From: a virus
Reading direction: 5' to 3' (one strand)
Virus record (IMG/VR): IMGVR_UViG_3300031519_006967
Location: 36,828 to 100,827 of that record
Length of the DNA: 64,000 nucleotides
The notes below the pieces were generated by a model that was not told the DNA's origin, made no database searches, and worked only from the letters and a program-made list of their open reading frames with translations. Every line of letters begins with the position of its first letter. Position 1 is the stretch's first letter. Shown one piece after another: positions 11,551 through 61,023 of this stretch. The translations under genes and the position numbers were made by a program.

Positions 11551-12036
11551 ATGACTCCTAGATTTAACAGAAGATCACGAATATTATTAGAACAGTTGGA
11601 AGATAAGGATGAGCTAAATCCAGAATTTGACGGCAAAAAGATTGAAGATTATCTAATTTGGGAGCCAGAGGGTGACTTACGAGTTTATGCTGACTTCGTT
11701 AATGAGATTCCATCTAAATCTAATGAGACATATCGTGGTCTTTCCACTAAGGAATTTTCCCAATTACATACTCAGGGACACTTGAAATCAGATAGTCGAG
11801 ATGTTGGTAAGGGACGAGAGGGAACCTACTCAGCAGGAGACTCCAAATTGGCAGGGCGGTTCGCCTTACGAAATGCGAGAGATTTAGGGGCATCAGTATT
11901 TCTTGTGTTGGATAAAGACGCCTTGCCGAATTTAACATGGCGAAATGATTGGGATTTCTCCTCTGAGACCATTCCGAGGGACGCTATAAAACATGCATAT
12001 CTGTTCCGAAATGGAAAGGTTAAGAAACTAATATAA
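11551..12036 (+). CDS. Hypothetical protein, possible ADP-ribosyltransferase-like fold, CTS-like N-terminus
   Basis: YRGLS..EF...GTYS pattern and IPRDAI near the C-terminus; TAAATA 5 nt before ATG 11551; flanked by a 20-bp direct repeat. Confidence 0.5.
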   Translation: MTPRFNRRSRILLEQLEDKDELNPEFDGKKIEDYLIWEPEGDLRVYADFVNEIPSKSNETYRGLSTKEFSQLHTQGHLKSDSRDVGKGREGTYSAGDSKLAGRFALRNARDLGASVFLVLDKDALPNLTWRNDWDFSSETIPRDAIKHAYLFRNGKVKKLI

Positions 12037-12073
12037 ACTTGAATTATGGAAATTATAATTATAAATAATTTTC

Positions 12074-12331
12074 ATGGCTGATTACGAATTAGAAGACGAT
12101 ATATACACTAGAGAATTAGATGATCTAGTAAACAAATATGGAGCATTTTGCGGAATACTCTTGAACAAGAACATTTCATGTGTTACTTTCTTTTCACAAC
12201 TACTACATGATGAAAAGCTGAGAAACAGTATGGCAAGCATTGGGCATTGCTCATGGTTTGATCTAGTGAAACATATGACGTATAGATATCCCATATTACA
12301 TAAATCTAAGAAAATTAACAAAATATTATAA
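12074..12331 (+). CDS. Hypothetical protein
   Basis: 85-aa ORF, TAAATA 6 nt upstream, stop overlaps the next start. Confidence 0.65.
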   Translation: MADYELEDDIYTRELDDLVNKYGAFCGILLNKNISCVTFFSQLLHDEKLRNSMASIGHCSWFDLVKHMTYRYPILHKSKKINKIL

Positions 12332-12981
12332 TGGAAATAACAGAGTTTGATAAGCGAGTTTACAATCTATACCTTAGTTCGGTTAGATCTTGTCAAAATA
12401 AGCCATATACATTACGTAAAAATTTTGATGGGTTTGTGGACGATGATAAATTTGCCTACTTGAAAGCTTTGTCATCAAGGTTCAGTAAAACGCCACATCT
12501 AATGTGTAAGGAATATTTCTCCGCGCCATTTACGCTGGGAGATGAAGGACATTTCGATTTAAAATATTATTCTTCCATGCGAGCAGTTGGTGCATTCTCG
12601 CGACTATCTAAGAGTTCCGAGAATAGACCACCTGATGAGCAGTTGGATTATTTAAAACAATCCTTCCTCTTTATCTATAAGTTCTGTAAGGACCATGAGT
12701 TGAAGTTAAATGATTATGCATACCACAAGTCCGTAGCATTGGAAGATTGTTTGAGACATATTAAAGATCATAAAGTGTCTATATATGTTGCATTCTCCAT
12801 TCCGTCAGTTTATACTGTGTTAGTGAATTTAGAGGCAGATGTATTCCACCTATATTTCGGTGATATTAGTATAGTCGAATTACAGAGGAAATATGAACGT
12901 AGTAAAGTAGCTAAACAATTTTGTCAAAATACAAGTGCGAAAATCGCAACTAGAGTTGACGAATTCCTTGCAAACCTGTGA
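12331..12981 (+). CDS. Probable helicase loader (T4 gp59-like)
   Basis: 216 aa, basic and aromatic, directly upstream of the gp32-like gene as in T4; YNLYL...FDLKYY pattern. Confidence 0.5.
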   Translation: MEITEFDKRVYNLYLSSVRSCQNKPYTLRKNFDGFVDDDKFAYLKALSSRFSKTPHLMCKEYFSAPFTLGDEGHFDLKYYSSMRAVGAFSRLSKSSENRPPDEQLDYLKQSFLFIYKFCKDHELKLNDYAYHKSVALEDCLRHIKDHKVSIYVAFSIPSVYTVLVNLEADVFHLYFGDISIVELQRKYERSKVAKQFCQNTSAKIATRVDEFLANL

Positions 12982-13089
12982 GGAAAACGATAAGTTATAT
13001 TGCATAGATTCGAAAGGATTGTTGCATTATAAAAAGTAATAGAGATTGTAAAATCTGAATAAAATAGTAAAAATAGTAAAAATAATAAT

Positions 13090-14013
13090 ATGAGTAATAC
13101 ACTAATCGATCTCGATTCGTTGATGAACACCGTCACCGAAAGCGAGATTAAGAAAAAAGAAAGAGAGAGTTCATCATCATCATCGGATGAGAACTTTCTA
13201 TCACTAAAAAAAGGAAACACTTACTTGGTAAGATTACTTCCTAATCGTGCTAACCCCGCAACCACCTTTGCAGATTACGAGGAATACGGATTCACGTCTG
13301 TGACTGGTTCTGGTTACATCTATGCTGGTAGAACACCATCAAGTATGGGCCGCAAGGATATGGTTAAAGACCTTCAGTGGGCAACTTACTCTAAGGGTAA
13401 GGAAGCAAACGATGAAGCGTTGATGAAGCGTTCCTATACTCTCTTCCCACAGAAGAAAGAAATGGTAAATGTATACGTCATTGACGATCCAACTAATCCA
13501 GATAATAATGGAACCGTTAAGGTTCTTCGTTATTCATCTAAAGTCAATAAAGATGGCGTTCCAACTTCTCCGCTATATGCGAAGATTCAGGATTCTATCT
13601 TCGGCGATGAGAAGGGTGACATTGGTAAGAAAGCGTTTGACCTTACGGGTAATGGCGTGAACTTCGCAATTAAGGTTGAGGAGAATCAGGGAGGGTGGAA
13701 TGACTATTCTAAGTCTAACTTCAAATTCCCAAATGATATTGGTCTTAGCGAAGCAGAGATTTCTGAAATCTACGAGTCCACCTTGGACTTGGAAACGTTC
13801 ATCCCCGAGGCGCTTTCTGATGAAAAGCTTAAAGCCCTATTGGATCAACATTGGTATGGAAATGCCTCTGCGTCCGTGAACGAAGAAGTAGAATTGTCTG
13901 ATGACACTGATGATATCCCTATGGATTTCGCCGACCCTGACGCTAAAGTTGAAGAGTTGAGCGATGATATGGATGATTTTCTCGGAGAACTTGACGATCT
14001 AGATTCTAAGTAA
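13090..14013 (+). CDS. Single-stranded DNA-binding protein (T4 gp32-like)
   Basis: VRLLP, NVYVIDDPTNPDNNGTVKV, FDL...G.NF.IKV, NDYSKSNF, acidic C-terminal tail. Confidence 0.92.
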   Translation: MSNTLIDLDSLMNTVTESEIKKKERESSSSSSDENFLSLKKGNTYLVRLLPNRANPATTFADYEEYGFTSVTGSGYIYAGRTPSSMGRKDMVKDLQWATYSKGKEANDEALMKRSYTLFPQKKEMVNVYVIDDPTNPDNNGTVKVLRYSSKVNKDGVPTSPLYAKIQDSIFGDEKGDIGKKAFDLTGNGVNFAIKVEENQGGWNDYSKSNFKFPNDIGLSEAEISEIYESTLDLETFIPEALSDEKLKALLDQHWYGNASASVNEEVELSDDTDDIPMDFADPDAKVEELSDDMDDFLGELDDLDSK

Positions 14014-14024
14014 TAAGTAAGTGT

Positions 14025-14673
<649 letters not shown>

Positions 14674-14681
<8 letters not shown>

Positions 14682-17244: not shown

Positions 17245-17811
17245 ATGAAATTAACATTAGAAGACTTTAATATTTTAGTAAACCAAGGAAGTGCCGAACT
17301 AGCAACAGATTTAGCTAATATGGGTAAACCGTCTTGTGAAGCGGATTCGGGGATGATTAGAAGCACTTTATTAGCAAACTCTGCGAGATATTGTGAGGCG
17401 AATGACCACCTAACACTAGAACAGAATTTAGATGTTATGACGCAAACTGTCAAGTGCCTATACAGTGAAGAGTTTGAGGAAATCTTAAACGATGACACAA
17501 TATCTATACAACCAATGACTGGTCCAGTTGGTCTAGCTATTGGCGTCTACATTACTGCGTATGAAACAGCTATCCAGAAAACTGCTGTAGAATCAGGAAC
17601 TCGCCGATTTGAAAACGATTTCGATTTTGGGGAGATTGTTGATGAATTGCGATTACGCCAAAAACAAAAAGAAGAAAACGGCGAAAACTCCCATATTATT
17701 TACTGCCCATACATCATGGTTATGTATGTGGAGACAAGGGGTGATTCTTATTTTTCTAGATATGGGGTGATTGATCACCTTATGGGTGAGAATATAATTA
17801 TTGAAGGATAA
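17245..17811 (+). CDS. Truncated paralog of a T4 gp23-type major capsid protein
   Basis: IQPMTGPVGL, KTAVESGTRR, IIYCPYI and SRYG motifs within only 188 aa. Confidence 0.65.
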   Translation: MKLTLEDFNILVNQGSAELATDLANMGKPSCEADSGMIRSTLLANSARYCEANDHLTLEQNLDVMTQTVKCLYSEEFEEILNDDTISIQPMTGPVGLAIGVYITAYETAIQKTAVESGTRRFENDFDFGEIVDELRLRQKQKEENGENSHIIYCPYIMVMYVETRGDSYFSRYGVIDHLMGENIIIEG

Positions 17812-17828
17812 TAGCATAAATATACCAG

Positions 17829-18512
17829 ATGAGATCATTTAAACAATTTATAATAACCGAATCTGTAGATGGGTTCTTCGACGATTTAGAAAATTGGGGA
17901 GTTTTACACTTTGATGGCAGACTGTATTATAAGGCATATGCCAATTCCACGGTTACTGTCGAATTAGGTGGCTGGTCTGGAGGTCTGCGATTATCATACA
18001 TTAAAGCAACCCCACATGGATCGGGTGCTGGGTCTATGTTCATGTCCGAGTTAGTTAAAAAGGCGGATGAACATAATATCAAGATTACTGGATCGGTTCA
18101 GTCGGAGGAGGGTGGACCATCCGACCAAAAATTACGCGAATTTTATCGAAAATTCGATTTTGAAATAGATGGTGAAGATATAGAAAGAACTCCAAACGCT
18201 ACCTCACCAGTTATTGTTTTACGTGGTTCAGGTTCACCCAAAAAGGCTAGAAGCCATATAGCAGAGTTATCTGAAAAATACGATTGGGTTGTTCATGGAG
18301 AACACGAATCTGGGTGGGAAAATTGGGAAGATGCTTTAGATTCGATTTGGGACAATGCCGAATTAGATGATGATGTTGAGGATTTCAAAAATATGGTATA
18401 TGGTGAATCTGGTGATGATTCCGATTTAGCCGAATTTATCAACGACGAATTAGAGAAGTTAAACTCACCATATAGTGTATCATTTACTGGCGAAAGTGAA
18501 GATGATTATTAA
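17829..18512 (+). CDS. GNAT-like protein with CTS-like N-terminus
   Basis: GSGAGSMFMSELVKKAD acetyl-CoA-loop-like motif, LREFYRKFDF; begins MRSFKQFIITE. Confidence 0.6.
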   Translation: MRSFKQFIITESVDGFFDDLENWGVLHFDGRLYYKAYANSTVTVELGGWSGGLRLSYIKATPHGSGAGSMFMSELVKKADEHNIKITGSVQSEEGGPSDQKLREFYRKFDFEIDGEDIERTPNATSPVIVLRGSGSPKKARSHIAELSEKYDWVVHGEHESGWENWEDALDSIWDNAELDDDVEDFKNMVYGESGDDSDLAEFINDELEKLNSPYSVSFTGESEDDY

Positions 18513-18554
18513 TAGCCTTAAAGGTGAGAATATAATTATTGAAGGATAATAATA

Positions 18555-19343
18555 TTAGCTTCTTAATTCATCTAAGAACTTTTTAACTTCGGGTATTCTA
18601 TCAGTTATTCTTTGTTTCTCAGTGTTTTTAGTCATTCCGCCATGTTCCAATAGCGCGAATGATTCGTCACCACCCCAAGCTAAGTCATCAATTTTATCAA
18701 CCTCTAAGTCTAAATAGTCCGCTTGCTCCCGTGTATTCACCACTATAGCAGTTTTAAGTTTGTGTTTAAGTATTAGTTTTTTCCCATATTCATTAGTATC
18801 ATAACTAGCAGTTATAACGAAGTTTGATGGAAGTTTATCTAAGCGTTTAACCCATAATGGAATTGATGTGGTATATGTGTAAAACAGTTTATTTGGCATT
18901 CTATTAGCTACTTCAATCCAAGCATCAAAATATGTCCCTGAGAAGAAATCCCCACCATTATGAAGGCGGAATATTGAACTCCGTGCGGCTCGCCTCTCTG
19001 CCAATATGGACCGTTGTAGAAGATCAGCCATCTTTTTAGTAGTTTTCTCAGCTTCTACTAACTCCATATTATTTTTAGTTTTCTCGGCAACTCCTTCGGG
19101 GAATCTTGTTTCTATTTGGTTCTTAAAACAACTCTTTTTACAATCCCCTGAAAATGGGCAAGAGTCTATTGTTGCTAGAGACATTCCCCAATTTCCATGT
19201 TTGCTGGTTTTAGTCGGTTGGTCTAATTTTATTACTGTTTCACAGTCTTGTAGGTCGTCTGCGTTCTCCCCACCATTCATCATAGCCTTAATATCGGCTG
19301 GAGATATTGCTTCTAATATCGTGTAAAGCTTACTGAACTTCAT
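18555..19343 (-). CDS. Phage gp88-like Cys-cluster (radical-SAM-like) protein with CTS-like N-terminus
   Basis: CPFSGDCKKSC, FRLHNGGDFFS, FYTYT, NFVITAS. Confidence 0.65.
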   Translation of the reverse strand: MKFSKLYTILEAISPADIKAMMNGGENADDLQDCETVIKLDQPTKTSKHGNWGMSLATIDSCPFSGDCKKSCFKNQIETRFPEGVAEKTKNNMELVEAEKTTKKMADLLQRSILAERRAARSSIFRLHNGGDFFSGTYFDAWIEVANRMPNKLFYTYTTSIPLWVKRLDKLPSNFVITASYDTNEYGKKLILKHKLKTAIVVNTREQADYLDLEVDKIDDLAWGGDESFALLEHGGMTKNTEKQRITDRIPEVKKFLDELRS

Positions 19344-19387
19344 AATATTATTTATTGTTTAACCGTTAATATAGTATAAATACCAAT

Positions 19388-19930
19388 ATCGCAAGTTTTA
19401 AATTATTTTTAGAAGGAAAGAAAAAGGGAACTGGGTTTGGTTGCCTGATGTTATACTTCCCGTCAGAATTAAAGAAGGAGTTCATGAAACTCACTACGAA
19501 GATTGACGAGAATGATCTATACAAACCAGAAGATGGATTTGGGGTAGAGACTGACCCACACGTAACGGTTAAATACGGACTACATGAGAACGACCACGAT
19601 AAGGTGTTTACGACTTTGGGTAAAATATCCCCAGTCACAGTTAAATTTAAAACTAAAGTTAGTCTGTTTGAGAATGAGAAATATGATGTTATTAAGATCA
19701 ATCTATCAGGTCCAGATATCCGAGCATTAAACAAACGAGTTAGTGACATTTTTGAATGCACTGATGGCTACCCAGTGTATACTCCCCACTCAACCATTGC
19801 ATACGTTAAACCAGGAACAGGTCATAAATATTTAAATTTAGATTCTGATTTTATGGGTAGTGAGTTTGACCTTACTAGGCTAATATATTCCGATTCTAAG
19901 TCAGACAAGAAGTATAAATATTTAAAATAA
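19388..19930 (+). CDS. 2H phosphoesterase, T4 57B/Acb1-like
   Basis: Two HxT motifs, PHVTVKYG and YTPHSTIAY; first ATG at 19448, but the frame extends to an ATC at 19388. Confidence 0.75.
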   Translation: MASFKLFLEGKKKGTGFGCLMLYFPSELKKEFMKLTTKIDENDLYKPEDGFGVETDPHVTVKYGLHENDHDKVFTTLGKISPVTVKFKTKVSLFENEKYDVIKINLSGPDIRALNKRVSDIFECTDGYPVYTPHSTIAYVKPGTGHKYLNLDSDFMGSEFDLTRLIYSDSKSDKKYKYLK

Positions 19931-19933
19931 ATT

Positions 19934-20521
19934 ATGAATACTTTTAACGACTATATACATATATTGGAAAATGAAATTAAAAATAATCTTCCCATTGATG
20001 AGATTATGAAATTTGCGGATTCACGGGGTGAAGTGTTTGCGGATACTGACACACATTTAGTTGTTCGCCCATCAAACCACAAATCATCTTGCAATTACGG
20101 GCAATATACTAGGTCCAATTTCTGCTTAGCGGAAGAGGATAATCCATCAGAGTGGGATCAAATAGATATGATTACCCAGCAAATGGGTTCACCCGCCCAC
20201 TTTTACTACGCATTTTCTAAGAAACTATCCCAGAAAAACAAGAATTCTATTTTTGGAATTATGGTATATCCCCGAGCGTGGAGCGATATGGCAGTTAATA
20301 TGAGCGATGAAGAGTTAGTAGCGACTGGTAGACAACGATTCACAGATCAAGTGGGGGGAGAATTGGCATATTCGGATGAATTTCTTTTAGATTGGGTTAA
20401 ACAGGTTAAACACCATAACAATTTATTTGAATCATACAACAGCAATAATAAAATTATTCTACCCAATGATTTGGAATCTCAGCTAGGGGTAAATCTTTTT
20501 AATATAATAATTAACGCTTAA
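19934..20521 (+). CDS. Hypothetical protein with CTS-like N-terminus
   Basis: MNTFNDYIHILE; SSCNYG...FCLA motif. Confidence 0.7.
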   Translation: MNTFNDYIHILENEIKNNLPIDEIMKFADSRGEVFADTDTHLVVRPSNHKSSCNYGQYTRSNFCLAEEDNPSEWDQIDMITQQMGSPAHFYYAFSKKLSQKNKNSIFGIMVYPRAWSDMAVNMSDEELVATGRQRFTDQVGGELAYSDEFLLDWVKQVKHHNNLFESYNSNNKIILPNDLESQLGVNLFNIIINA

Positions 20522-20538
20522 GTGGATAAATATTTTAA

Positions 20539-21429
20539 ATGATTTCTTTTAAGCGTTTCTTGTTTGAAGAGGGGATGACCCCATCTGATATATTGTTCAA
20601 TCCTGAGAACAATGATACTACTTGGCGGGAGTTAGTTGAAAAATTTAAGGAGAGTGGTGGAACTATGGCAGACGGTGGTAGAGCGCCAGTAATGATGCAT
20701 CCCGATTGGGATCATGTGGTGAAGTTGTTTAACGACGATATGTCATATTTAAAATTTGTGAGGTGGGTAATGAAAAAGTCCAATCCAAATTCAGCTTTCC
20801 CGATTTTTAAGGATAAGCCCAGAAGCATAGTCCCCAACTACAAACGAGGGTATGAAGATGAGAAAATGTATGCTGCTAGAATTGAGGAACTATCCCCAAT
20901 ATCTAAAGAAGATTATTTAGACTTACTGGAGTTTTGTGACACGGTAGACGCAGACGGTAATAATAGGTGGTATGAAATGAAAGATAAGCGAACGTTAGAA
21001 TATGAGGAAGAACATGGCCCCAACCCCAGAACTGTATCACAAGACAAAATGATAGAGAGAGTTAAAAAACGTCATCCAAACTGGAAAGATATAAAACCTG
21101 CAAAAACCGAGTTGGTTATGGCAGGATTGTGGAATGACGAAAAACAAACTAACGTTATGCTGAGAGACAATGGTGAAGTTGTATACATTGATCCAGTTTG
21201 GGATGGAGTGTCATTTGCAGAAATGCAGAGGGATGCTATGCGAGATCGTGACGGAGAATACCACGATTATGATCCTGGTTATGATGACCCTGATTACAGT
21301 CCCCCTGAACCACCATCTTTACAAGGCGGCGAGAAAATAAAACGCAAAAGAATTAAAAAGAAGATGCCTACCCCTAAACCAGAAGCAAGTCCAACATGGG
21401 ACGACACTGAATCGGAAATACCATTCTAA
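20539..21429 (+). CDS. Protein kinase-like protein with CTS-like N-terminus
   Basis: VVKLF (ATP-binding Lys), catalytic loop DEKQTN (DxKxxN), YIDP metal-binding loop. Confidence 0.6.
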   Translation: MISFKRFLFEEGMTPSDILFNPENNDTTWRELVEKFKESGGTMADGGRAPVMMHPDWDHVVKLFNDDMSYLKFVRWVMKKSNPNSAFPIFKDKPRSIVPNYKRGYEDEKMYAARIEELSPISKEDYLDLLEFCDTVDADGNNRWYEMKDKRTLEYEEEHGPNPRTVSQDKMIERVKKRHPNWKDIKPAKTELVMAGLWNDEKQTNVMLRDNGEVVYIDPVWDGVSFAEMQRDAMRDRDGEYHDYDPGYDDPDYSPPEPPSLQGGEKIKRKRIKKKMPTPKPEASPTWDDTESEIPF

Positions 21430-21443
21430 GGATAAATATCCAT

Positions 21444-22031
21444 ATGGATACCAGCACTGAAATGGCACAATTCATCATGGAGATGGAAGGAAGACGAGAC
21501 GAAAACGGATGTTTAGAAGTTTATTATTTACCTGAAGGTGATGGCGGCGGTGACTATGAAGTTGCTGGAATTAATAATAAATATCACCCCAAGCAAGCAC
21601 TACATCTTAAAACTTTAGTTGAAAATGGTAATTGTGTCGCGTCGGAATTATACGCTATTAATTATATTAAGGATTACACCTCTGTTGATCCTGAATGGCA
21701 TTACGATGACCGAGTTAATGCCTACCTAATGGACTGTAGATTCAATCGCGGACCTACTGGAGCAGCATACATCTTCCAACACTCGTTAGAGGTCGCAGGG
21801 ACGTATACGGGCGGATTAGATGGCGTGGTGGGGTCAGGAACTCGCGCAGCAGCAGCAAAGCACACAGCAGAAGACCTATTACTAAGATTACACTTGTCTC
21901 GACAATGGTATGAGCGGGAAAGAGTTGGTAGAGATGAATCTAGCGACTTTTGGAGTGGCCTTACAAATAGGTGGGTAAATGCCATGCAAATTTGTCTATC
22001 TGTAGGTGACCCATACGAAGATTTAGTATAA
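21444..22031 (+). CDS. GH108-like lysozyme/peptidoglycan hydrolase
   Basis: EMEG...DGGG.YEVAGIN, DCRFNRGP, DGVVGSGT, FWSGLTNRW. Confidence 0.7.
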   Translation: MDTSTEMAQFIMEMEGRRDENGCLEVYYLPEGDGGGDYEVAGINNKYHPKQALHLKTLVENGNCVASELYAINYIKDYTSVDPEWHYDDRVNAYLMDCRFNRGPTGAAYIFQHSLEVAGTYTGGLDGVVGSGTRAAAAKHTAEDLLLRLHLSRQWYERERVGRDESSDFWSGLTNRWVNAMQICLSVGDPYEDLV

Positions 22032-22039
22032 GTAGACTT

Positions 22040-23800
22040 ATGAGTTTTGATACCCGCTTGCAAAAGATATTAGATGCTAATTCTATAGTATTAGAATCTA
22101 ATAAAGACAAATACGCCGCCATGTTCACTTGGTTGGATAAATTCGATGATGAACTTAATTCTGATGTGTATAAAGATCGGGCATCTAAAGAAATTTCTAG
22201 GGCTAGGCAAGACTTAAAAAAAGAAAGAGTAATTACTTGGTGGTTGAAGCATGTTAGGATTGCTTTGGTTAAGGCGATATTTGGTTGGATTGACATGGAG
22301 GATAACCCCGACACCCCAGAATTATTAGCCAAAAAGAAGACACTCAACAAGATGATGTCTAAGTATGGTAGTGAATTTGGGAGTACTGATGATGTATATT
22401 ATGATGGGTTAGATAACATGTACACTAAATTACAACATAGTATTTCAATGGCTAACGTTGTTACTGGTATTGATAATTATGACTATAGTGGACAGGAGTT
22501 GACACCGACGTTGCGGGAGTTTTCCGAATTGGAGGATGAATGGGCTGAGTCCATTGGTGAGGGTATGGTGGACACTGCGGAGGATGATGAGGTTCTTATT
22601 GACCTTGGAGATGGGTGGAAATGGATAGATTTAAAAAAATATAAATGTACGAGGGAGGGTGGCTCTATGGGCCATTGTGGTAATACCGCTGACGGTAAAC
22701 CAGGACAAACCATATTATCGTTAAGGAAGGAGAAAGATGTGGGATCGGAGAGTCGCCCTAGAATTATGCAAAGACCATCAGTAACCTTTATATATAATAT
22801 TGCCGATAAAACTTTAGGGGAGATGAAAGGTAGGGCTAATAAAAAACCCAATAAAATCTATCACGATAGCATTATTAAATTATTAACACATAAAGAAGAT
22901 GGTGAGTTCTTCATTAAAGAGGTGGTTGGTGGTGGGTATGCTCCCAGTGGTAATTTCGCCCTGACCGATTTGTCCGACGAAGATAAGGACGCACTACTTA
23001 AAATCAGACCAGAGTGGAGATCAATATCAGACATATATAGAACTGACGGATTTACTGAGGACGTTAAAGAAAAATTAATGAAGGCACACGGTAATGGATT
23101 GAAATTTGTGGATAAGGATGGGGAGGATTTCATCCATTATCAAATTGCAGACACTATGGAAGAGTTGATTGAGTTAGATAGCGGCAATCTTACTAATTTA
23201 AATAATTACCTTGGCTATATTCAGGGCGACAAAATTTTACTAACTAGGGATTTTGATGTGGAGCAAGATGTAAATGGTTATTATGCAGACGACATATTAC
23301 AACCAGAACTATCTAAAATTAAAAAATATATAAAAAAATCATATGATTATTATGATGGGACCGTGGAAGATTTTATTAAAAATGAGGAAGATGGCGTCGA
23401 ATTTAAAAATGCATTAAGACGGTCTATGGCAGAGGGATATTCTCAGGGAGCAGAAAGAGAGATGACTGCTGCATATAAATATGCAGTAGAAAATCTGCAT
23501 GTCAATTTTGAAGTGGAGAATGGAGGCGGTTACCTGGAAAATGATAGCATTATTACTGATATGTATAAAACGGTGGCGGGGTATGGTTATTGGGGGGGTG
23601 CTGCGTATTCTGTGGAGATGTCCCTTAAAGAATTATTAAGATTGATGGAGGCAGCAGGAAGTGAATACGAGATGTATGTATTTGATAATGTATCAGAAGC
23701 AGAAGAGGACATGGAAGTTCCCTATAATGGTTGGAGTGGGTTCAATGAATACTCCGCAAAAGAACTATTCGCTGATCTAGTTCACGACATTATTAACTAA
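22040..23800 (+). CDS. Large acidic protein with PcfJ-like domain
   Basis: EGGSMGHCG...ILSLR...EMKGRANKKP; paralogous segment in 39788-41794. Confidence 0.6.
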   Translation: MSFDTRLQKILDANSIVLESNKDKYAAMFTWLDKFDDELNSDVYKDRASKEISRARQDLKKERVITWWLKHVRIALVKAIFGWIDMEDNPDTPELLAKKKTLNKMMSKYGSEFGSTDDVYYDGLDNMYTKLQHSISMANVVTGIDNYDYSGQELTPTLREFSELEDEWAESIGEGMVDTAEDDEVLIDLGDGWKWIDLKKYKCTREGGSMGHCGNTADGKPGQTILSLRKEKDVGSESRPRIMQRPSVTFIYNIADKTLGEMKGRANKKPNKIYHDSIIKLLTHKEDGEFFIKEVVGGGYAPSGNFALTDLSDEDKDALLKIRPEWRSISDIYRTDGFTEDVKEKLMKAHGNGLKFVDKDGEDFIHYQIADTMEELIELDSGNLTNLNNYLGYIQGDKILLTRDFDVEQDVNGYYADDILQPELSKIKKYIKKSYDYYDGTVEDFIKNEEDGVEFKNALRRSMAEGYSQGAEREMTAAYKYAVENLHVNFEVENGGGYLENDSIITDMYKTVAGYGYWGGAAYSVEMSLKELLRLMEAAGSEYEMYVFDNVSEAEEDMEVPYNGWSGFNEYSAKELFADLVHDIIN

Positions 23801-23808
23801 ATAACATT

Positions 23809-39752: not shown

Positions 39753-39787
39753 AATATAGAAAGACGTAAAAAGGTATAAATAAAACT

Positions 39788-49850: not shown

Positions 49851-50507
49851 TTCGTCATCTTCATCAGCGTAATCTCGCATGATGTTGTTGAATTCTTCCT
49901 GATTATTACTTCTATTAAATAATCCTTTAACCGATGTTACATATCGAATTGGGATGTTTTTAGCATTAAGTTGCGTTTCCACCCTCTCAATATATTTAAT
50001 TTGGTCTAGATATTCCTCGTCGAACCTGTCCTTATAATTACCTTCTAAAAATTCCTTGGGTAAGAACATGATGGCGCTTTTCACAAAATGATCTAGTGGT
50101 TCAAATCTTTTGTTTTTAGGTTTAATGACATCTTCTAATTGCCCGTTGTCCTTTCCATGGAATTCCATATAATCTGGGTCTTGGCTAATTTCCTTCCACG
50201 ACATGCCATGTTCCTCCATCTCATCTGCCTCTAAATCGTCGTTGGGGTTCCCGTAGTAAGTAAAATTATCAGTTCCATGTGCGTGTCCTTTATATTTTTG
50301 ATTCACCTTATCTCCATCAAATTCAAAAATCACACCAATCAACCTATAATTTATGTGATACTTCCCAGTTAAGCTTCTGGTGGTACTAAGACCCCCATTA
50401 GCCTTTATGTAATTCCCTTCTAGTGCTTTGTGTGCGTTATCGAATGATATCATATGATACACAATGGATGATACTGATTCCATTAAAAATTCTTTGAACC
50501 TTAACAT
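49842..50507 (-). CDS. Hypothetical protein with CTS-like N-terminus, possible ART-like fold
   Basis: MLRFKEFLME; VYH...LSTTRS...VIFEFDG...EDVI. Confidence 0.55.
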   Translation of the reverse strand: MLRFKEFLMESVSSIVYHMISFDNAHKALEGNYIKANGGLSTTRSLTGKYHINYRLIGVIFEFDGDKVNQKYKGHAHGTDNFTYYGNPNDDLEADEMEEHGMSWKEISQDPDYMEFHGKDNGQLEDVIKPKNKRFEPLDHFVKSAIMFLPKEFLEGNYKDRFDEEYLDQIKYIERVETQLNAKNIPIRYVTSVKGLFNRSNNQEEFNNIMRDYADEDDELE

Positions 50508-50543
50508 AATATTATTTATATTATTTATATTATAAATAAATAT

Positions 50544-51236
50544 ATGACCACTAAATTCTCAAAATTATATAATGAGGCAGTTGAGAACTCTATGAAATCG
50601 TCGATTGAAACGATTGCCCAGTCCGATGTTGAGACTATTAAAAATTCAGATGTTGATGAACAAGACATTTCCGATATTAAAACTCTTCATAACAAACTAG
50701 CAGCAATGGGTAATGATATGAAGCAAATGCAAGAAGCATTGAAGGCGTCATCTAATATAGAGCAGAGACAGCAAAAAATACAAAAAGGGTCTGGTGGTGG
50801 TAAGGTTCTTAAGACTGCTGGGACTATTGGCGGGGCAACTGGAGCCAGCATTTCTGGTAATGCCATATATAAAATTTATAATAATTTAGAACAAAGTGTG
50901 GCGGAATTTCAACAATGGTTGAATACTTCTAAACAATTTATGGAATCTGGGTTAGTGCAAAAGGCTAATACGGTTGCAAGTAAGATTTCGGGGTTTTTCT
51001 CACCAAATACTGATGATGGTATGGGGAACATGGATTCAAATACTTCCCCCAGTTTAGGTGATATGCCCCTAGAACAAATGTTGGAAAATATAGATATGGC
51101 TAAATTTGGACTATATGTTATGGCCATAAGTTACATTGTCCATGCTCTTGGTAAAATCTTACAATGGATGGAAGGTAAATACCACACATCTAGACTTAAA
51201 TCTGATAGGAAATCATACATTAACCAGACTAAATAA
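50544..51236 (+). CDS. Hypothetical protein with CTS-like N-terminus and hydrophobic helices
   Basis: MTTKFSKLYNE; FGLYVMAISYIVHALG. Confidence 0.65.
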   Translation: MTTKFSKLYNEAVENSMKSSIETIAQSDVETIKNSDVDEQDISDIKTLHNKLAAMGNDMKQMQEALKASSNIEQRQQKIQKGSGGGKVLKTAGTIGGATGASISGNAIYKIYNNLEQSVAEFQQWLNTSKQFMESGLVQKANTVASKISGFFSPNTDDGMGNMDSNTSPSLGDMPLEQMLENIDMAKFGLYVMAISYIVHALGKILQWMEGKYHTSRLKSDRKSYINQTK

Positions 51237-51584: not shown

Positions 51585-54500
51585 ATGCCACAATTAAATT
51601 TAACAATTGAATCACCAGGTGTAGAGATACGAGAAGTAGACCTATCATTAAATCCTGATATTCCCATCGGAACCAATGTTTATGTGGTCGGTTTTACCCC
51701 ACAAGGTCCAACCGATGAGCCAACAAACCTTTCCAGTCTAGTTGAATTCGAAGAGATTTTTGGTCTCCCAGAGTCAGCAGCAGAAAGATATGCACACAAC
51801 GCAGTTAAACAAATTATCACAACTTCGAATTCGAATGTGTTGTTTACTAGAATGCCTTACGGGTCTGCTTGTGGTATAGGCTACGCTAATTCATATTCTG
51901 CAATGGTATTCCCAACAGTGGGCCTATCCGCAACAGAAGTTGATGTGTGTACGTATTACCAAGGATTATCCGAGGCGGAAGTAAGTGAAAACTACCCATG
52001 GTTACATGGGGATTATTATGTGAAACCATCACTATGCATTGGATCAAATAAATTCGATTGCCCACAAACACCACTGACAGACAGTGGAGGGAGTTTTGTG
52101 GCTCACGACTTTAAATTCGAGTATGCTGGAAAACTTAAAAATATTAAATGGGTTGTTGATGATGATACATCATCTGAAACGTTCTCAGCGTTCCTACTTA
52201 GACCAGAAGCAGACTCATTGGATTGTACCTTTGATGTCGTAACAGCAATTAACCTACAGGATTACGCTACAGGCGATGAAGATACCGCAGGATTAAGTAT
52301 TGCTAATGGAGTAGCAGATTGGGATTTAACTACTGGACCTGATGGCGGATTGCCAGTTCAGGCAGGAGACTTAATCGCAACTTGGGACACTGCTGGAGTT
52401 TTTAAATATTATATCTCATCTAACGGTAGCTCTACTATCCTTTCGGGTAATAATCCAATCGTTGGAGATACCTTTTATGCAGCAGGTTCAGCAGATGGAA
52501 CTAATTGCCTAAGCGGTAGCCTAGATTATCTTATTGATTTCTGCTACAGCCCAACTAATTCAGGACTATCTTGCGATACCCTGACTTCTTTAGGAGTAAC
52601 AGTTCCAGAAAACGCAAAATATACCTACAACCCAGTTGGAGGTGATTGTCAGCTTAATGACGCTAACTACTACGTTCTGGGTCAACCAATTCACGTTACT
52701 CTAAGTGACGCAGAATACGAATTACTTAAAAATCAGCAGTTCAATTGGAAGTGCGGATGTTTCGAGAATAATGAAGCATTGCTAGACCTTGAAGGAAATG
52801 ATGTTCGCGCAGGACTAATCGTTGTAAACGAAGCTAAGACTGCTCAACTCGAAGACTTCAGTGGTTACTACCTTGCTATCAACGATAACTTGAATTTTAA
52901 CCCATCTACCGACTTCGACGAAGTTACTGGTATTTGCGGTAGATTCGATGAAGAATGTTTGGAAATTGAAGGTGCATGGACGCCATTACCAGAAGAGAGG
53001 CTTAATTTTGAAGTATCAGCCGCTTTTGATGGTAATGCGGGTTCTATATCAGAAATAATCGAACAGGGCGCAGGGCTTGATTTGGGGGCAGTGGAATACA
53101 ACGACTCGATTGTTGTATCACTCTTCAAATTGAGACCTACGCGATTCACTGAAGATATTACTAAGTTGGACCAAATCTTGGTTGAAAAATTCACAGGTTC
53201 ATTGAACTCTGAAAGAATGGTTCAGGATAGCTTTGGTGGACCACCTAGAACATCTTTCATTGAGGAAGTTGTTAATAGGGGATCAAACAATCTTACAATG
53301 TTTGTTAATCCATTCTTATCAGATAACAATTGCTGGAATGACGCAAAGGGAACTCCACAAAAATCCGTAAGGGTTTTCCGTGAAGCTACTGGTGGAGTAT
53401 TCGACAACTTCGATGCCGATGATGCACTTAAAGCGTTCGGTGATAACTTGTATGGTATTGGCCAATATACAGGCCATTGTCAAGATGCTACATATGAACT
53501 ATGTGTCCAGAAGGACGTTGGTTCATTGCCTTGTAAACTTGAGAGAGCCTTGGTATGCGCAGACAATCCACTTGAATATGATATCGACATTACTGTTGAT
53601 GCTGGTCTATCCACAATTTGGGGTACAAGACAAGCAACGTCAGATGATGATTGTAACAGTCCAGTAGCTACATGCTACCACTTCGATGATTCAGTATACA
53701 TTAATACAGATAGCCTATCTCCTAGAGATGGAACTACCTTGAATAGTGATCTTAAGGATGGTTGGGCTACGGTTAACAATGCTTTCATAAGCTTCGCTAA
53801 GCGTGATTCCGATCCAACTTACGCGGGTCACCTGCACATCTCCGATCCACAAAGACAAATCTTTATTAATGGTAAAGACTTTAAAGTTGTGAAGAGACAG
53901 AAGCAAGTATTACTAGACCCTGTGACTGGAAACATCTCTAAGAAGTATAGCACGTTCTCACGTAACATATATACATATCTTAAGAATCTATACGATGGTG
54001 TTAACTCATCATATGTAGCGGCTTATCCTAACTGGATTCGTGATTACGACACAAGTAGAGATAAATACTGTTGGTTCCCAGCTTCTTCCTACGCGGCAGC
54101 AGCAATGGCACGAACAGATCAAAACTTCTTCCCATGGTTCGCGCCAATGGGACCAACTAGAGGTGTCTTATCTAACGTTATTGATCTTGCAATCAATCCG
54201 AATCAAAAGGAAAGAGACTTGCTTTACAGAATCAATCTTAACCCAATCGTTAACCTACCAGGAGAAGGAAACTTAATCTGGGGTCAGAAGACGATGTTAA
54301 GAGCGCCTTCTGCACTTGATAGACTCAACGTAAGAAGAGGTCTCCTAGAGTGGGAGAAAGCTACACAGAGAACGTTATGGCAGTTCATTGGTGAGCCAAA
54401 CACAATCATTACTAGAACAAGAGTTGAGAATACTCTGAAGCCTATTTTTGAGAATGCTAAGCAGAATCAGGGACTTTATGACTACTTGGTCGTATGTGAC

Positions 54501-54641
54501 GAGAGAAATAACAATTTTTCAACTATTGACCAAAATGTTCTAAATGTTGACATTTATCTGAAGCCAGTTAAGGCGATGGAATTCATAAAAGCGAACTTTA
54601 TTGTTACTAGAACTGGAATTGACTTCGGTGAGCTTCTCTAA
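51585..54641 (+). CDS. Contractile tail sheath protein (T4 gp18-like)
   Basis: SPGVEIREVDLS, GPTDEP, PWFAPMGPTRG, INLNPI, WGQKT, LDRLNVRR, VVCDERNN, YLKPVKAMEFI. Confidence 0.96.
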   Translation: MPQLNLTIESPGVEIREVDLSLNPDIPIGTNVYVVGFTPQGPTDEPTNLSSLVEFEEIFGLPESAAERYAHNAVKQIITTSNSNVLFTRMPYGSACGIGYANSYSAMVFPTVGLSATEVDVCTYYQGLSEAEVSENYPWLHGDYYVKPSLCIGSNKFDCPQTPLTDSGGSFVAHDFKFEYAGKLKNIKWVVDDDTSSETFSAFLLRPEADSLDCTFDVVTAINLQDYATGDEDTAGLSIANGVADWDLTTGPDGGLPVQAGDLIATWDTAGVFKYYISSNGSSTILSGNNPIVGDTFYAAGSADGTNCLSGSLDYLIDFCYSPTNSGLSCDTLTSLGVTVPENAKYTYNPVGGDCQLNDANYYVLGQPIHVTLSDAEYELLKNQQFNWKCGCFENNEALLDLEGNDVRAGLIVVNEAKTAQLEDFSGYYLAINDNLNFNPSTDFDEVTGICGRFDEECLEIEGAWTPLPEERLNFEVSAAFDGNAGSISEIIEQGAGLDLGAVEYNDSIVVSLFKLRPTRFTEDITKLDQILVEKFTGSLNSERMVQDSFGGPPRTSFIEEVVNRGSNNLTMFVNPFLSDNNCWNDAKGTPQKSVRVFREATGGVFDNFDADDALKAFGDNLYGIGQYTGHCQDATYELCVQKDVGSLPCKLERALVCADNPLEYDIDITVDAGLSTIWGTRQATSDDDCNSPVATCYHFDDSVYINTDSLSPRDGTTLNSDLKDGWATVNNAFISFAKRDSDPTYAGHLHISDPQRQIFINGKDFKVVKRQKQVLLDPVTGNISKKYSTFSRNIYTYLKNLYDGVNSSYVAAYPNWIRDYDTSRDKYCWFPASSYAAAAMARTDQNFFPWFAPMGPTRGVLSNVIDLAINPNQKERDLLYRINLNPIVNLPGEGNLIWGQKTMLRAPSALDRLNVRRGLLEWEKATQRTLWQFIGEPNTIITRTRVENTLKPIFENAKQNQGLYDYLVVCDERNNNFSTIDQNVLNVDIYLKPVKAMEFIKANFIVTRTGIDFGELL

Positions 54642-54754: not shown

Positions 54755-56440
54755 ATGGATAAATCTATATATTTGGAGGATTTTAGGGAGGCATATCCCA
54801 AACATTATGTTAGACTGATAATGAGGGATAATCCTGAGTATTATGAAGCCGCCGTGGAATATTGCCGTGAGTTGGGTTTAGATTCTAATGCTAAACTATT
54901 ATACCATTATGCCCACGATTTGGATGTTATTCCTGATTGTAAAACTTGCGGAGATCAAATAAAAGTATTTGGGGTTAACAATAATAGAGCATACAACTCC
55001 TTTTGTGGAAAGTCGTGTGCAGCATCAAACCCAGAAGTGATAAAACTAAGGGTGGCGAATAGAACTGAATCCGCTATAGATATTTTAAATAAAAAGAAAC
55101 AAACAATACTATCTAAAGATGTAGTAATAGATGAGAAAACATTCCGTCAGTTTATTAACAAGATGGAGGATACCAATATAACAAATATTGAGAAAACACT
55201 CATTGCACATCACCCCGATATTTATAATTACTATTATAAAATCCATGGAGATTTAAATCCAAATGAAGTGGTATATTTAATTAAAAATGATATGGATAAG
55301 CCACATTGTCCTGATTGTAATATACCTTTAAAATTTGAGACGTATATTAAAGGTTACGTATCGGGATGCTCCACCCCCGCATGTTATGGGAAAGCGTCAG
55401 GTAGAACTAAAAGAGCAAAACACTATCATATATGGGAACCTAGATTAAACGCAAAGAATATTAAAATCCTTTCTGATATTGATCAGTATGTTGATGATGG
55501 TGTCATTACTCTAAACTGCACAAAATGTGATCATACGTGGGATAGAAAGGTACACACTACTATTCATGGTGGTTGTCCTAATTGTAGGGTATCCAAACCT
55601 GAAATGGAAGTATTTGAATTTATAAATGAGGAATCTAAAGTATCGAACACTAGAAAAATAATACCACCTCTAGAATTAGATATATACATCCCAAATCACT
55701 CCTTGGCAATTGAGTTTAATGGAATCTACTGGCACTCCGAATTAAGTGGAAAGGATAAACAATACCATTTAAATAAAACCAAAGTATGTGAGTCTAAAAA
55801 TATCCAATTACTTCATATATTTGAAAGTGAGTGGAAATTTAAAGAAGATATTTGGAAATCTATTATAAACACAAAGCTGGGTAATAATATTAGAATATAT
55901 GGGCGTAAGTGTAAAATTAAAGAAATTGATACATCTATAAAGAATGAATTTCTGGACTATAACCACCTACAAGGACAAGACAAGGCATCCATAAAATTAG
56001 GACTATTTCACGAAGAAGAGTTAGTATCGGTCATGACGTTCTGTAAGTCTAGATTCGATAAGGGATACCAATGGGAGCTTAGTCGCTTTGCATCTAAATT
56101 AAACACTTCAATTATAGGGGGAGCATCAAAGCTTCTTAAATATTTTACTAGAAATTACAAACCCGAAAGTCTAATATCATATGCTAATAGACGACACAGT
56201 AATGGGAATTTATATAAACAACTGGGATTCTCTTTCCTTCGTGATAGTCCACCAAATTACTTTTATTTTAAAGGCAGTGATTGTTGGGATTTAAAATCTA
56301 GGCAACAGTTCCAGAAGCATAAGTTGGAAGATAAGTTGGAAGAATTCGACCGCAATCTATCTGAATGGGAGAACATGAAGATCAATGGATATGACAGAAT
56401 TTGGGATTGTGGTAATAGTGTTTGGTCTCTAATATTATAA
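54755..56440 (+). CDS. Free-standing Hef-like homing endonuclease (Zn fingers, PD-(D/E)xK domain, GNAT-like C-domain)
   Basis: Several CxxC motifs; ELDIYIP..LAIEFNGIYWH, LLHIFESEW; NHLQG, ELSRFA, GGASKLL, YDRIWDCG. Confidence 0.8.
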   Translation: MDKSIYLEDFREAYPKHYVRLIMRDNPEYYEAAVEYCRELGLDSNAKLLYHYAHDLDVIPDCKTCGDQIKVFGVNNNRAYNSFCGKSCAASNPEVIKLRVANRTESAIDILNKKKQTILSKDVVIDEKTFRQFINKMEDTNITNIEKTLIAHHPDIYNYYYKIHGDLNPNEVVYLIKNDMDKPHCPDCNIPLKFETYIKGYVSGCSTPACYGKASGRTKRAKHYHIWEPRLNAKNIKILSDIDQYVDDGVITLNCTKCDHTWDRKVHTTIHGGCPNCRVSKPEMEVFEFINEESKVSNTRKIIPPLELDIYIPNHSLAIEFNGIYWHSELSGKDKQYHLNKTKVCESKNIQLLHIFESEWKFKEDIWKSIINTKLGNNIRIYGRKCKIKEIDTSIKNEFLDYNHLQGQDKASIKLGLFHEEELVSVMTFCKSRFDKGYQWELSRFASKLNTSIIGGASKLLKYFTRNYKPESLISYANRRHSNGNLYKQLGFSFLRDSPPNYFYFKGSDCWDLKSRQQFQKHKLEDKLEEFDRNLSEWENMKINGYDRIWDCGNSVWSLIL

Positions 56441-58432: not shown

Positions 58433-58433
58433 C

Positions 58434-59290: not shown

Positions 59291-59291
59291 A

Positions 59292-59462: not shown

Positions 59463-59470
59463 GATATTAC

Positions 59471-60364
59471 TTAGCTAAATGAAAACCACTCTTCTAGTAG
59501 ATTCTTGTTATTTAATAATGATCTCCAAGAGGTGATATCTCTAGTCACCGCAGTTAATCTATATGTATCACACATGGATCGAAGCTCAGACTCATTGAAC
59601 GTGTTGGTTTCTACTAATTCATCCAACTGAGTATCATATGACTCTATCTCCCCCTCTGATAATGCTATACTTTTAGTTAAATCCATAATTTTGCGGTTTC
59701 TTTTTAAAATATCCACTTGATCGGTAGTTAGGGTGTCCCACTCTTTTGATATTGCAAGACGCTTAGATTTAACTTCACCATATCGATCCAACCCAATCAC
59801 ATTGTCTGATTTGTCGCCTAAAATGGCTTTATAATCAACGAAGCATTCTTTTGGAACGCCTGTAAACTCCTCGAAGTTTTCTAAGGTGACTTTGACATTT
59901 TTGGTAGTGTTAAATACGACTGTATTTTCAGATGCTAGTTGTAATAAATCCCTATCGGATGATATCACGACCTTATCTCCTTCCAGTGTAGTTGTTAGGT
60001 ATGCTGCTACATCATCCGCTTCCAAATTCCATGGGTACATATTCTTGATACCTAAGTGTTGGGTGAGTTCAATGATAAGATCAATGGCATCAAATATTTC
60101 ATTTCGGACATCATCTTCTATGTTTCTGTGGCCTTTATAGTCCACAAGTTCTTTTCTGTAATTATCTCCTGTTGGGTTTAACCTTTTATCCCAGACTATA
60201 TATACGTGATTGGGTTTGAAGGATTCTATGTATCCTTTAACCATTCGAAGGAATTGAGTTACGACTGTTATATTAACGCCGTTCACCATCTGACTTCCTT
60301 TTGTTACGTGGTATGCTCTGAATATTGTGTTATTTCCGTCCAAGATTAAGTTTAGACTGTTCAT
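59471..60364 (-). CDS. rnh: 5'-3' exonuclease / T4 RNase H-like flap nuclease
   Basis: ILDGNN, YKGHR, LEADD, ISSDRDLLQL, GDKSDNV.G. Confidence 0.92.
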   Translation of the reverse strand: MNSLNLILDGNNTIFRAYHVTKGSQMVNGVNITVVTQFLRMVKGYIESFKPNHVYIVWDKRLNPTGDNYRKELVDYKGHRNIEDDVRNEIFDAIDLIIELTQHLGIKNMYPWNLEADDVAAYLTTTLEGDKVVISSDRDLLQLASENTVVFNTTKNVKVTLENFEEFTGVPKECFVDYKAILGDKSDNVIGLDRYGEVKSKRLAISKEWDTLTTDQVDILKRNRKIMDLTKSIALSEGEIESYDTQLDELVETNTFNESELRSMCDTYRLTAVTRDITSWRSLLNNKNLLEEWFSFS

Positions 60365-60373
60365 GTCAATAAC

Positions 60374-60655
60374 TTAATCCATGGAAGGAGTAGATTCCAC
60401 TTTTTTATCATTATTCTCCCAAGTTAGCCTAACATCTGCGTATACATCATCAGGCATTTCTTCAATGATTTCAAGGGTTTCCTCCAACACCATAGCATCG
60501 AATAAATCTTTAGGTATAGTCAAGTTAGTGTTTCCGCCAGCAAAGATTTTCAAACATTCTACTTGCTTTGCGCCATATTCTATGACTATAATACCATTAC
60601 CAGACTCTCCTGGTATACATAATGCCATGAAATGTTTTTCATAATTCATAAGCAT
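60374..60655 (-). CDS. Hypothetical protein
   Basis: 93-aa ORF. Confidence 0.6.
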   Translation of the reverse strand: MLMNYEKHFMALCIPGESGNGIIVIEYGAKQVECLKIFAGGNTNLTIPKDLFDAMVLEETLEIIEEMPDDVYADVRLTWENNDKKVESTPSMD

Positions 60656-60744
60656 ATTTAATTACTAAATTACTTTAAAGCAATTAAAATATTTATTAGG
60701 GCGAATGCCCGTGGGTGTGTTCGGCTTTAAAGTTATTATTAATA

Positions 60745-61023
60745 TTACTTAAATGGTCTAGGGCCAAAAGTCTTTCTATAATATTTTCTAAAGTCTTTTT
60801 GAATTTTACCAGTTGTTGGGATTAGTGGAAGAGAGTAAACGTGTCCGCCTTTTTGGAAAAATCCGATACGGCGAGGTAAAACCTTTTTCATTTCCTTTGG
60901 GGATAATTTACCTGGATATACTTTTCGGCCCTTCTGGTCCAACCACTTAGCGTAATGCCGTTCTTCGATGAGTTCCAAGGATTCGTTGATCTTACGTAGT
61001 TTTTCGTTAAAATTCGGGGTCAT
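60745..61023 (-). CDS. Basic protein with CTS-like N-terminus
   Basis: MTPNFNEKLRKINE; TAAATA 5 nt upstream. Confidence 0.6.
   Translation of the reverse strand: MTPNFNEKLRKINESLELIEERHYAKWLDQKGRKVYPGKLSPKEMKKVLPRRIGFFQKGGHVYSLPLIPTTGKIQKDFRKYYRKTFGPRPFK

Follow-up and report, generated by a model that had tools for sequence, protein, structure and literature searches.

Introduction

The internal proteins of T-even phages have been described as "a highly diverse set ... with only a conserved CTS" (PMC3012670), the CTS being the capsid-targeting sequence, and the count of known internal proteins is at least ten (PMC12373910). In the IPIII CTS, residues 4 and 7 were assigned to targeting and residues 8 and 10 to processing by the amber-suppressor mapping of Mullaney & Black (1996), as reviewed in PMC9026906. 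According to the same review, Asp10 in the IPIII CTS blocked cleavage but not targeting, and ten CTS residues were enough for the loading of foreign proteins (Mullaney & Black 1996). The ip loci of T-even phages are referred to as hypervariable (Repoila et al. 1994, cited in PMC12373910 and PMC9026906), and Ip1-3 inhibit GmrSD type IV restriction enzymes, all three T4 internal proteins being able to disarm restriction enzymes (PMC12373910). Here we describe CTS-like peptides at the N termini of otherwise unrelated proteins encoded in a 64,000-nt stretch of the IMG/VR virus record IMGVR_UViG_3300031519_006967, namely bases 36828-100827 of this 100,827-bp contig (hereafter the window, to which positions refer unless given as contig positions). 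Judging from its genes, this contig represents roughly half of a marine phage genome that branches deeply within the T4 superfamily and lies far from all cultured phages.

That the CTS serves as a loader of varied proteins in T4-like phages has already been published (PMC3012670, PMC9026906, PMC12373910), and our literature search found no paper on a CTS-type tag outside Tequatrovirus or as an expanded set. The well-supported feature reported here is a new, enlarged instance of this known mechanism, and the tagged proteins may in addition serve as effectors. Proteins that enter with the phage DNA act ahead of any phage gene expression.

Results and discussion

An N-terminal tag shared by otherwise unrelated proteins

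An initial annotation of the window had listed 16 dissimilar open reading frames with a common N-terminal motif. All 16 quoted peptides were recovered by translation at their coordinates and strands, one of them starting with ATC and not ATG, and the shared tag is thereby confirmed. The cluster of seven tagged genes that had been placed in 17.8-24.7 kb is also correct. The consensus is formed by an aromatic residue (usually Phe) at positions 3-5, often with a neighbouring Lys, an aromatic residue or Leu three positions on, and a terminal (I/L/F/Y)-x-Glu. Six of the tags were graded as canonical, five as good and five as loose (Table 1). The arrangement of Phe4 with Phe or Tyr at position 7 is exact in seven tags, displaced by one residue in three and unmet in the loose five. 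The (I/L)-x-Glu stands exactly at positions 8-10 in three tags, and a hydrophobic-x-E is reached by residue 16 in all 16.

All statistics use the 132 genes called on the whole 100.8-kb contig. The pattern of the initial annotation, ^M.{1,3}F.{2,9}[ILFYVM].E, occurred at the N terminus of 15 of the 132 proteins, compared to 3.5 +/- 1.8 for shuffled N termini and 3.3 expected from internal positions, where its match rate was 2.5%; it was found in 0 of 100 spurious non-gene open reading frames of at least 50 aa. The motif is thus a feature of the N terminus only. As this pattern had been composed after viewing the data, a second one, ^M..[FY]..[FY][IL].E (aromatic residues at 4 and 7, I/L at 8 and Glu at 10), was fixed from T4 IPII and IPIII alone. 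This a priori pattern gave three matches (20539, 44785 and 50507) versus 0.03 expected (p = 5e-6). Residue enrichment determined position by position without offsets was weak, with K2, S2 and F5 alone standing out; the offset of the tag varies. Taken by sequence, at least 11 and probably 16-20 of the 132 genes begin with a T4-type capsid-targeting propeptide of 9-16 residues; roughly one gene in seven carries the tag, from which it follows that the phage probably packs a large and fast-changing protein cargo.

Late promoters and the genes that are tagged

Almost no gene in the whole window has a Shine-Dalgarno leader. Late boxes of the form [T/A]ATAA[A/G]TA lie 5-7 nt before the ATG (e.g. 39770-39790 and 50509-50545), and in many other genes TTGA-N17-TAtAAT ends immediately before the ATG, which together points to leaderless mRNAs for early as well as late genes. 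The tags begin at an ATG 5-7 nt after a late box, the exception being the ATC at 19388. The statement in the initial annotation that the tags sit right behind a late-promoter-like motif was borne out: of the 18 tagged genes 14 had ATAA[AG]TA at a distance of 3-8 nt ahead of the start codon, versus 15 of the 114 untagged genes (Fisher p = 5e-8). A homolog of the late sigma factor gp55 was found on the contig by phmmer (E = 5e-7). Late expression of the tagged genes, as predicted from these promoters, is supported.

The late genes that carry no tag encode sheath, tube and baseplate proteins. Among the products identified, none of the following carries a tag: DNA polymerase, helicase, primase, single-stranded DNA-binding protein, the large terminase, the sheath, two tube-like proteins, the baseplate hub and a gp25-like protein. 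The initial annotation had named a motif equally common on replication and tail proteins as grounds for rejecting its reading; the number of recognisable replication, tail, baseplate or terminase proteins with a tag was 0, and the reading stands up to this check.

The closeness of promoter and start codon also bears on a different explanation, in which the motif is a functionless by-product of chance, of AT-rich composition, of a constraint on the first codons of leaderless genes, or of a recombination cassette consisting of a promoter plus first codons. Nearly all genes are leaderless with a -10 or late box 5-7 nt ahead of the ATG, TTT and AAA are AT-rich codons, and T4-type phages are known to have mobile promoter cassettes (PMC2839356). 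However, the motif is lacking in 15 late and ~99 other leaderless genes, and T4 carries the same peptide on mRNAs led by a Shine-Dalgarno sequence. Synonymous sites inside the tags vary (TTT/TTC, AAA/AAG, GAA/GAG), so it is the peptide and not the DNA that is constrained. Additionally, IMG/VR was scanned with ATAAATA-N4-7-ATG-x-x-F-K-x-F, a query that leaves Glu10 and residue 8 unspecified. Among the matches listed, Glu10 was present in 30 of 76 distinct open reading frames of at least 50 aa (39%) and a hydrophobic residue 8 in 48 of the 76, and Glu10 was present in 0 of 25 short non-ORF controls. Together with the conservation of the site between orthologs that is described below, these results have already largely refuted a by-product, which we regard as hardly credible.

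Comparison with the T4 capsid-targeting sequence and related systems

The four positions mapped in T4 are those conserved here, and for this reason the peptides are read as CTS-type propeptides. We consider it likely that the tags are T4-type capsid-targeting propeptides for prohead loading, which would be cut by an S77 (gp21-type) prohead protease. The tagged genes would be transcribed late from gp55-type TATAAATA promoters, and an amphipathic N-terminal helix would dock the protein onto the scaffolding core during prohead assembly. The S77 protease would cut behind the Glu, releasing the mature protein within the head, and the cargo would exit together with the DNA when the next host is infected. 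The steps of docking, cleavage and ejection, like the existence of the protease and an effector role of any kind, are what we infer from the example of T4 IPI-III. The initial annotation had proposed a tag by which late-made enzymes are loaded into heads and act before transcription in the next host, and overall this interpretation is partly supported.

In the T4 record, IPII and IPIII start with MKTYQEFIAE, IPI with MKTFKEF (MKTFKEFTSTTTPVSTITE) and gp24 with MAKINELLRE/S, the slash marking the cleavage site. The CTS of IPI-III is likewise an N-terminal propeptide, of 10-19 residues, with aromatic residues at 4 and 7, I/L at 8 and Glu at 10; it is borne by late genes and is the sole element common to otherwise unrelated proteins. 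Three of the present tags fit the T4 decapeptide exactly, and MLRFKEF is close to MKTFKEF of IPI. In contrast to T4, where four genes in all are tagged (IPI-III and gp61.1), there are 16-20 tagged genes per 100 kb in the present phage, the cargo is mostly 130-670 aa and acidic whereas that of T4 is small and basic, and the spacing from the aromatic residues to Glu varies, packaging and cleavage being predicted for the present set. On the side of T4, we observed that gp61.1, a hypothetical protein of 54 aa (NC_000866 18966-19130, L160), starts with MKTFKEFIKE, a perfect CTS shape, and carries no internal-protein annotation.

The T-even ip loci resemble the present locus in that tagged genes cluster, with the tag but not the cargo being conserved between relatives. 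Unlike in those loci, no cargo of the present contig resembles Ip1-3, and the recognisable domains are those of enzymes (2H, GP88, GNAT-like) and not small inhibitors. T4 Alt, a 682-aa ADP-ribosyltransferase (ART) that is packaged into the head, processed by gp21 and injected, is a precedent for enzyme-sized cargo with a cleaved propeptide (MELITELFDE), although the 668-aa tagged protein has no sequence similarity to it and none of the tagged proteins gave an ART domain match. The ejection proteins of giant phages (SPN3US and phiKZ-like; PMC5694885, PMC7411985) are also many large head-internal proteins processed by a T4-related prohead protease. Their propeptides, however, are not a shared short N-terminal decapeptide, and the present phage has replication and tail genes of the T4 type.

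A shared N terminus could also be a leader for another machine, such as a radical-SAM-type modifying enzyme, secretion or membrane targeting. We consider this very improbable, as no radical-SAM domain (PF04055) was detected on the contig whereas 14 of 14 control genomes matched, and the tag has no Sec- or Tat-type hydrophobic core. Moreover, the tag agrees with the T4 CTS at each of the four residues whose function has been mapped, and it is terminated by the gp21 cleavage motif.

Distant relatives and conserved cargo families

In IMG/VR, a polymerase of detectable relatedness is encoded on one other contig only, G001 (63 kb), which is syntenic with the present contig and has core proteins that are 25-40% identical. 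With the pattern of the initial annotation left unchanged, 8 of the 71 genes of G001 were matched versus 1.65 expected (p = 3e-4), and tags such as MISFKAFYEAVE, MIPFKKFYLKE, MVMFSKRFYSLLE and MMFEKRFIKLLE again stand behind late boxes. No homologous pair was found between the tagged proteins of G001 and those of the present contig. Within the contig the tagged proteins share no families either, the tag being their only common element. The tag is thus kept across distant relatives on unrelated cargo.

A hydrophobic-x-E site at the boundary of a conserved domain is kept in three cargo families, and the site is retained in orthologs at 35-58% identity. In the first family, orthologs of the GP88-like protein that are 50-58% identical retain the tag (MNFSRLVTLLE, MYMRFSRLIHLLE and MKLDNVLSLILE), whereas more than 45 distant GP88 members begin directly at the domain, without the N-terminal extension of ~35 residues. 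An AF2 model of the GP88-like protein (pLDDT 89) has a separate tag helix at residues 3-12, a flexible, low-confidence linker, and the domain from ~40. Foldseek of this model against the PDB gave nothing at E <= 0.001, and weak TIM-barrel-like rows only. In the second family, that of the 422-aa protein, 7 of 8 members have a hydrophobic-x-E that aligns 7 residues ahead of a conserved P-[EK]-[LVI]-F, with sites such as FINE/S, YITE/S, LIHE/S and LLKE/Y. In the family of the 668-aa protein, a variable propeptide of 7-31 residues ends in hydrophobic-x-E immediately ahead of a conserved KD[LN]R in 17 of 32 representatives. From the distant GP88 members without the extension and the non-homologous cargo of G001 it can be concluded that the tag is modular.

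Nature of the tagged proteins

Most of the tagged proteins had no match in Pfam and PHROG searches. Two of the enzyme labels of the initial annotation hold, i.e. the 2H phosphoesterase (PF13563) and the Cys-cluster protein, which belongs to GP88 (PF17338). The GNAT-like label of 17829-18512 is a lead only: ESM Atlas GNAT clusters were obtained at 0.93-0.94 by features and TM 0.73-0.75 by row, and there was no Pfam match. The kinase, ART-like and zincin-like labels were not upheld, with no Pfam or PHROG match and nothing convincing in scans for zincin, P-loop and ART motifs; 23809-24669 has no HExxH, and 39788-41794 has no similarity to T4 Alt. Small basic tagged proteins, like the classical internal proteins, are encoded at 36079-36477 and 60745-61023.

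It may be asked whether the tag does target the prohead, with much of the cargo being parts of the head core, scaffold or assembly machinery that are degraded or retained, and not injected effectors. Such parts could be represented by the acidic proteins 37496-38095, 46615-47385 and 23809-24669 (pI 4.1, 4.2 and 4.3), which bear no enzyme signature; the T4 core proteins gp22, gp67 and gp68 also have N-terminal hydrophobic-x-E sites according to the T4 record, and the general lack of Pfam or PHROG matches fits as well. On the other hand, at least three tagged proteins are enzyme-like (2H, GP88, GNAT-like), and the cargo differs between relatives, unlike a structural core and like the hypervariable internal proteins of T-even phages (PMC3012670, PMC12373910). 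We therefore consider this explanation unlikely for the bulk of the cargo. Some acidic, helical tagged proteins could still be prohead-core parts instead of effectors, and 37496-38095 in particular could be a core or scaffold-like part.

Several observations weigh against the tags being capsid-targeting propeptides of an injected set. Loose tags make up five of the 16, and chance alone is expected to give ~3 matches to the loose pattern. Most of the cargo is acidic (pI 4-5), unlike the basic IPII and IPIII of T4. In the 668-aa family the Glu adjoins the conserved KDLR and may for that reason belong to the domain and not to a cleavage site. The ATC start at 19388 should give poor translation from a leaderless mRNA. 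This codon lies 5 nt after TATAAATA, at the same spacing as the ATG of the neighbouring genes, and the next ATG is at 19448. It is identical (19388-19390) in contigs from two other studies, which excludes an assembly error. Either translation starts at a rare non-AUG codon of a leaderless mRNA, or a change of the start codon has silenced the tag. Finally, no S77 protease (PF03420, PF07068), scaffold or major capsid gene was detected on the contig or on a 13.1-kb extension of it from a TARA scaffold, although the protease model recognises T4 gp21 as well as the proteases of two tag-bearing contigs, G004 and G002. The head module probably lies off the contig, which is ~47% complete (CheckV), and this would account for the missing protease. 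The present phage presumably has a gp21-type protease, since gp21 is a core gene of T4-related phages (PMC9026906).

Tag-bearing contigs in IMG/VR

On the tag-bearing T4-like contig G004 there are genes for an S77 protease, for a scaffold protein in which hydrophobic-x-E sites number 18, and for a major capsid protein with ...WQPILE/S at its start. Clusters of genes starting with MITF[KR]K[FY]IL(x)E, MIKFKEFILRE or MIRFKEYILLKE were found in the IMG/VR contigs L164-L167, with at least seven in 21 kb of L166, and these clusters include homologs of the 422-aa protein. The excess of the loose pattern over expectation per 100 kb was ~11.7 for the present contig and ~10 for G001, in comparison to ~3.2 for T4, ~2.3 for G003 and ~3.4 for G004, the latter two being other T4-like contigs; the tag set is thus three to four times denser than in T4. 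A similar tag density was found in L166, which represents another lineage.

If the tag of T4 is valid this far from T4, candidate first-strike proteins of uncultured phages can be recognised by a ten-residue pattern together with a late promoter, most of these candidates being ORFans beyond naming by homology search. On the basis of the present contig, G001 and L164-L167, some marine lineages give 10-15% of their genes to such predicted cargo, several times the density in T4. We suggest that the T4 packaging system, being established, lends itself to direct tests of foreign tags. More tentatively, M-x-x-F-K-x-F-(I/L)-x-E might be an address label of the whole T4 superfamily, from coliphage T4 to deep-branching marine lineages, used here for a fast-turnover set of perhaps 30-40 pre-packaged enzymes per genome. 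These would include a 2H (Acb1-like) phosphodiesterase that, delivered with the DNA, would destroy cyclic-nucleotide immune signals before phage gene expression. In that case the tag would be a sequence handle for mining metagenomes for injected anti-defence proteins.

Another huge phage (G002, 210 kb; L017; L006 5797-9472 and 12616-13086) has an S77 protease and a run of small tagged genes. The tags of G002 differ and end in I/L-x-E (MKNLIKKILKEE, MKDRIRKILRES, MNLRKIIREE and MNLKKLIREE). A tag of the G002 flavour (MKIKKLIQEEIEE) was also observed in the GP88 homolog P0005.

Individual tagged genes

The tagged genes are collected in Table 1, including one candidate that had been overlooked in the initial annotation. 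In the gene at 11551 the tagged Met is encoded by the second in-frame ATG, with TATAAATA 5 nt before it, and the first ATG (11530) overlaps the late box. For the protein encoded by 20539-21429 no homolog besides itself was found among 5.8 billion proteins.

Table 1. Genes of the window with an N-terminal tag. Late genes are predicted from their promoters; a slash marks the candidate cleavage site; genes on the minus strand start at the higher coordinate.
Position	Strand	Grade of tag	Phe4 with Phe/Tyr7	N terminus	Product	Basis and remarks
11551-12036	+	loose	unmet	MTPRFNRRSRILLE	late gene, 161 aa	translation; no Pfam or PHROG match
17829-18512	+	canonical	exact	MRSFKQFIITE/S	late gene, 227 aa; GNAT-like lead	one extra residue in tag; no Pfam match
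18555-19343	-	good	displaced by one	MKFSKLYTILE/A	late gene, 262 aa; linker, then GP88 domain with three invariant Cys	PF17338, E = 9e-32
19388-19930	+	canonical	exact	(ATC)ASFKLFLE/G	2H phosphoesterase	PF13563, E = 3e-8; Acb1 weak, 0.003; two HxT/S motifs
19934-20521	+	good	exact	MNTFNDYIHILE/N	195 aa	F4, Y7, I8; I-L-E at 10-12; no family match
20539-21429	+	canonical	exact	MISFKRFLFE/E	late gene, 296 aa; ORFan	exact T4 shape; a priori T4 pattern
22040-23800	+	loose	unmet	MSFDTRLQKILDANSIVLE/S	late gene, 586 aa	19-residue candidate propeptide; no family match
23809-24669	+	loose	unmet	MDFDTLSRLLVE/M	286 aa	tag loose to moderate; pI 4.3; no HExxH
36079-36477	-	good	displaced by one	MTRKFNQVYENILHE/T	late gene, 132 aa; like classical small basic internal protein	translation; pI 10.9
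37496-38095	-	good		MKSFKNRFNTLLLTE/E	late gene, 199 aa, acidic	pI 4.1; weak helical/'tail protein' matches only
39106-39318	+			MKSFTESTKPAQIANDLATLDNE	late gene, 70 aa; added candidate	like T4 IPI
39788-41794	+	good	exact	MQSFAEYKLLLE/KDLR	late gene, 668 aa; phage family with variable propeptides	PcfJ lead only
44785-46053	+	canonical	exact	MIGFKNFINE/S	late gene, 422 aa	exact T4 shape; a priori T4 pattern
46615-47385	-	loose	unmet	MSRDLSEFYVQEYLTE/S	late gene, 256 aa, acidic	translation; pI 4.2
49842-50507	-	canonical	exact	MLRFKEFLME/S	late gene, 221 aa	exact T4 shape; a priori T4 pattern; cf. T4 IPI
50544-51236	+	canonical	displaced by one	MTTKFSKLYNE/A	late gene, 230 aa	translation; one-residue shift
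60745-61023	-	loose	unmet	MTPNFNEKLRKINE/S	late gene, 92 aa, basic	translation; pI 10.4

Related peptides were also observed on the part of the contig before the window. At contig positions 16908-18647 (window -19919 to -18180), on the minus strand, a tandem array of three open reading frames contains four copies of (IPTF)KRWLKE/S. Two of the copies are N-terminal (MKTGIPTFKRWLKES and MKTVIPTFKRWLKNES) and two are internal (one behind a poly-Lys run, and SKRWLKES); judged by their sequence, the internal KRWLKE copies would be protease sites within larger precursors. The homolog of gp4, the T4 head-completion protein, at contig positions 3311-3778 (window -33516 to -33049) starts with MAKKFKEFKQGIFK, i.e. 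the first half of the tag without its hydrophobic-x-E end.

Source phage and its affiliation

The assignment to the T4 superfamily is based on core genes of replication, late transcription, packaging and the tail, all of which are represented on the contig. PHROG and phmmer identified homologs of T4 gp43, gp41, gp61, UvsX, UvsW, Dda, gp46 and gp47, and in addition homologs of gp17, gp18, gp19, gp4, the baseplate hub, a gp25-like wedge protein and gp55. The distance from cultured T4-like phages is large: the best tblastn hits of the DNA polymerase (1890-4454), in T4-like pelagiphages, Methylophilales phages and cyanophages, reached only ~30% identity. The tail sheath (51585-54641) has 1018 aa, of which the last 290 residues match cyanophage sheaths (tblastn). 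For the cluster at 17-25 kb and the tagged proteins, no megablast or tblastn match was found among 50,697 phage records.

Near-identical DNA was found in marine and brine metagenomes from at least 15 studies. The population is nearly clonal at 17800-24700, where contigs of four runs from four studies differ from the window at two bases only (22416 and 22418) over 6.9 kb. The TARA scaffold overlaps the final 1117 nt of the window exactly and adds 13.1 kb beyond the window end (L161). Viral contigs were also scanned for exact words taken from the start of the contig and from the outer end of the TARA extension, and nothing was found. The extension encodes a Glu-tRNA-synthetase-like protein, a PP-loop ATPase, thioredoxins and lipoproteins, and it contains one additional tag-like late gene (MSKFDDAVNEKLLEE). 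The end of the window at 63881-63915 resembles the 3'-terminal part of a tRNA (GTTCGACTCCCACCTGTGCTACCA). A 561-aa HNH/homing-endonuclease-like gene at 54755-56440 (PHROG E = 1e-119) separates the sheath gene from the tube genes, and downstream of the tube gene a block of small minus-strand genes occupies the place of the T4 portal and head genes.

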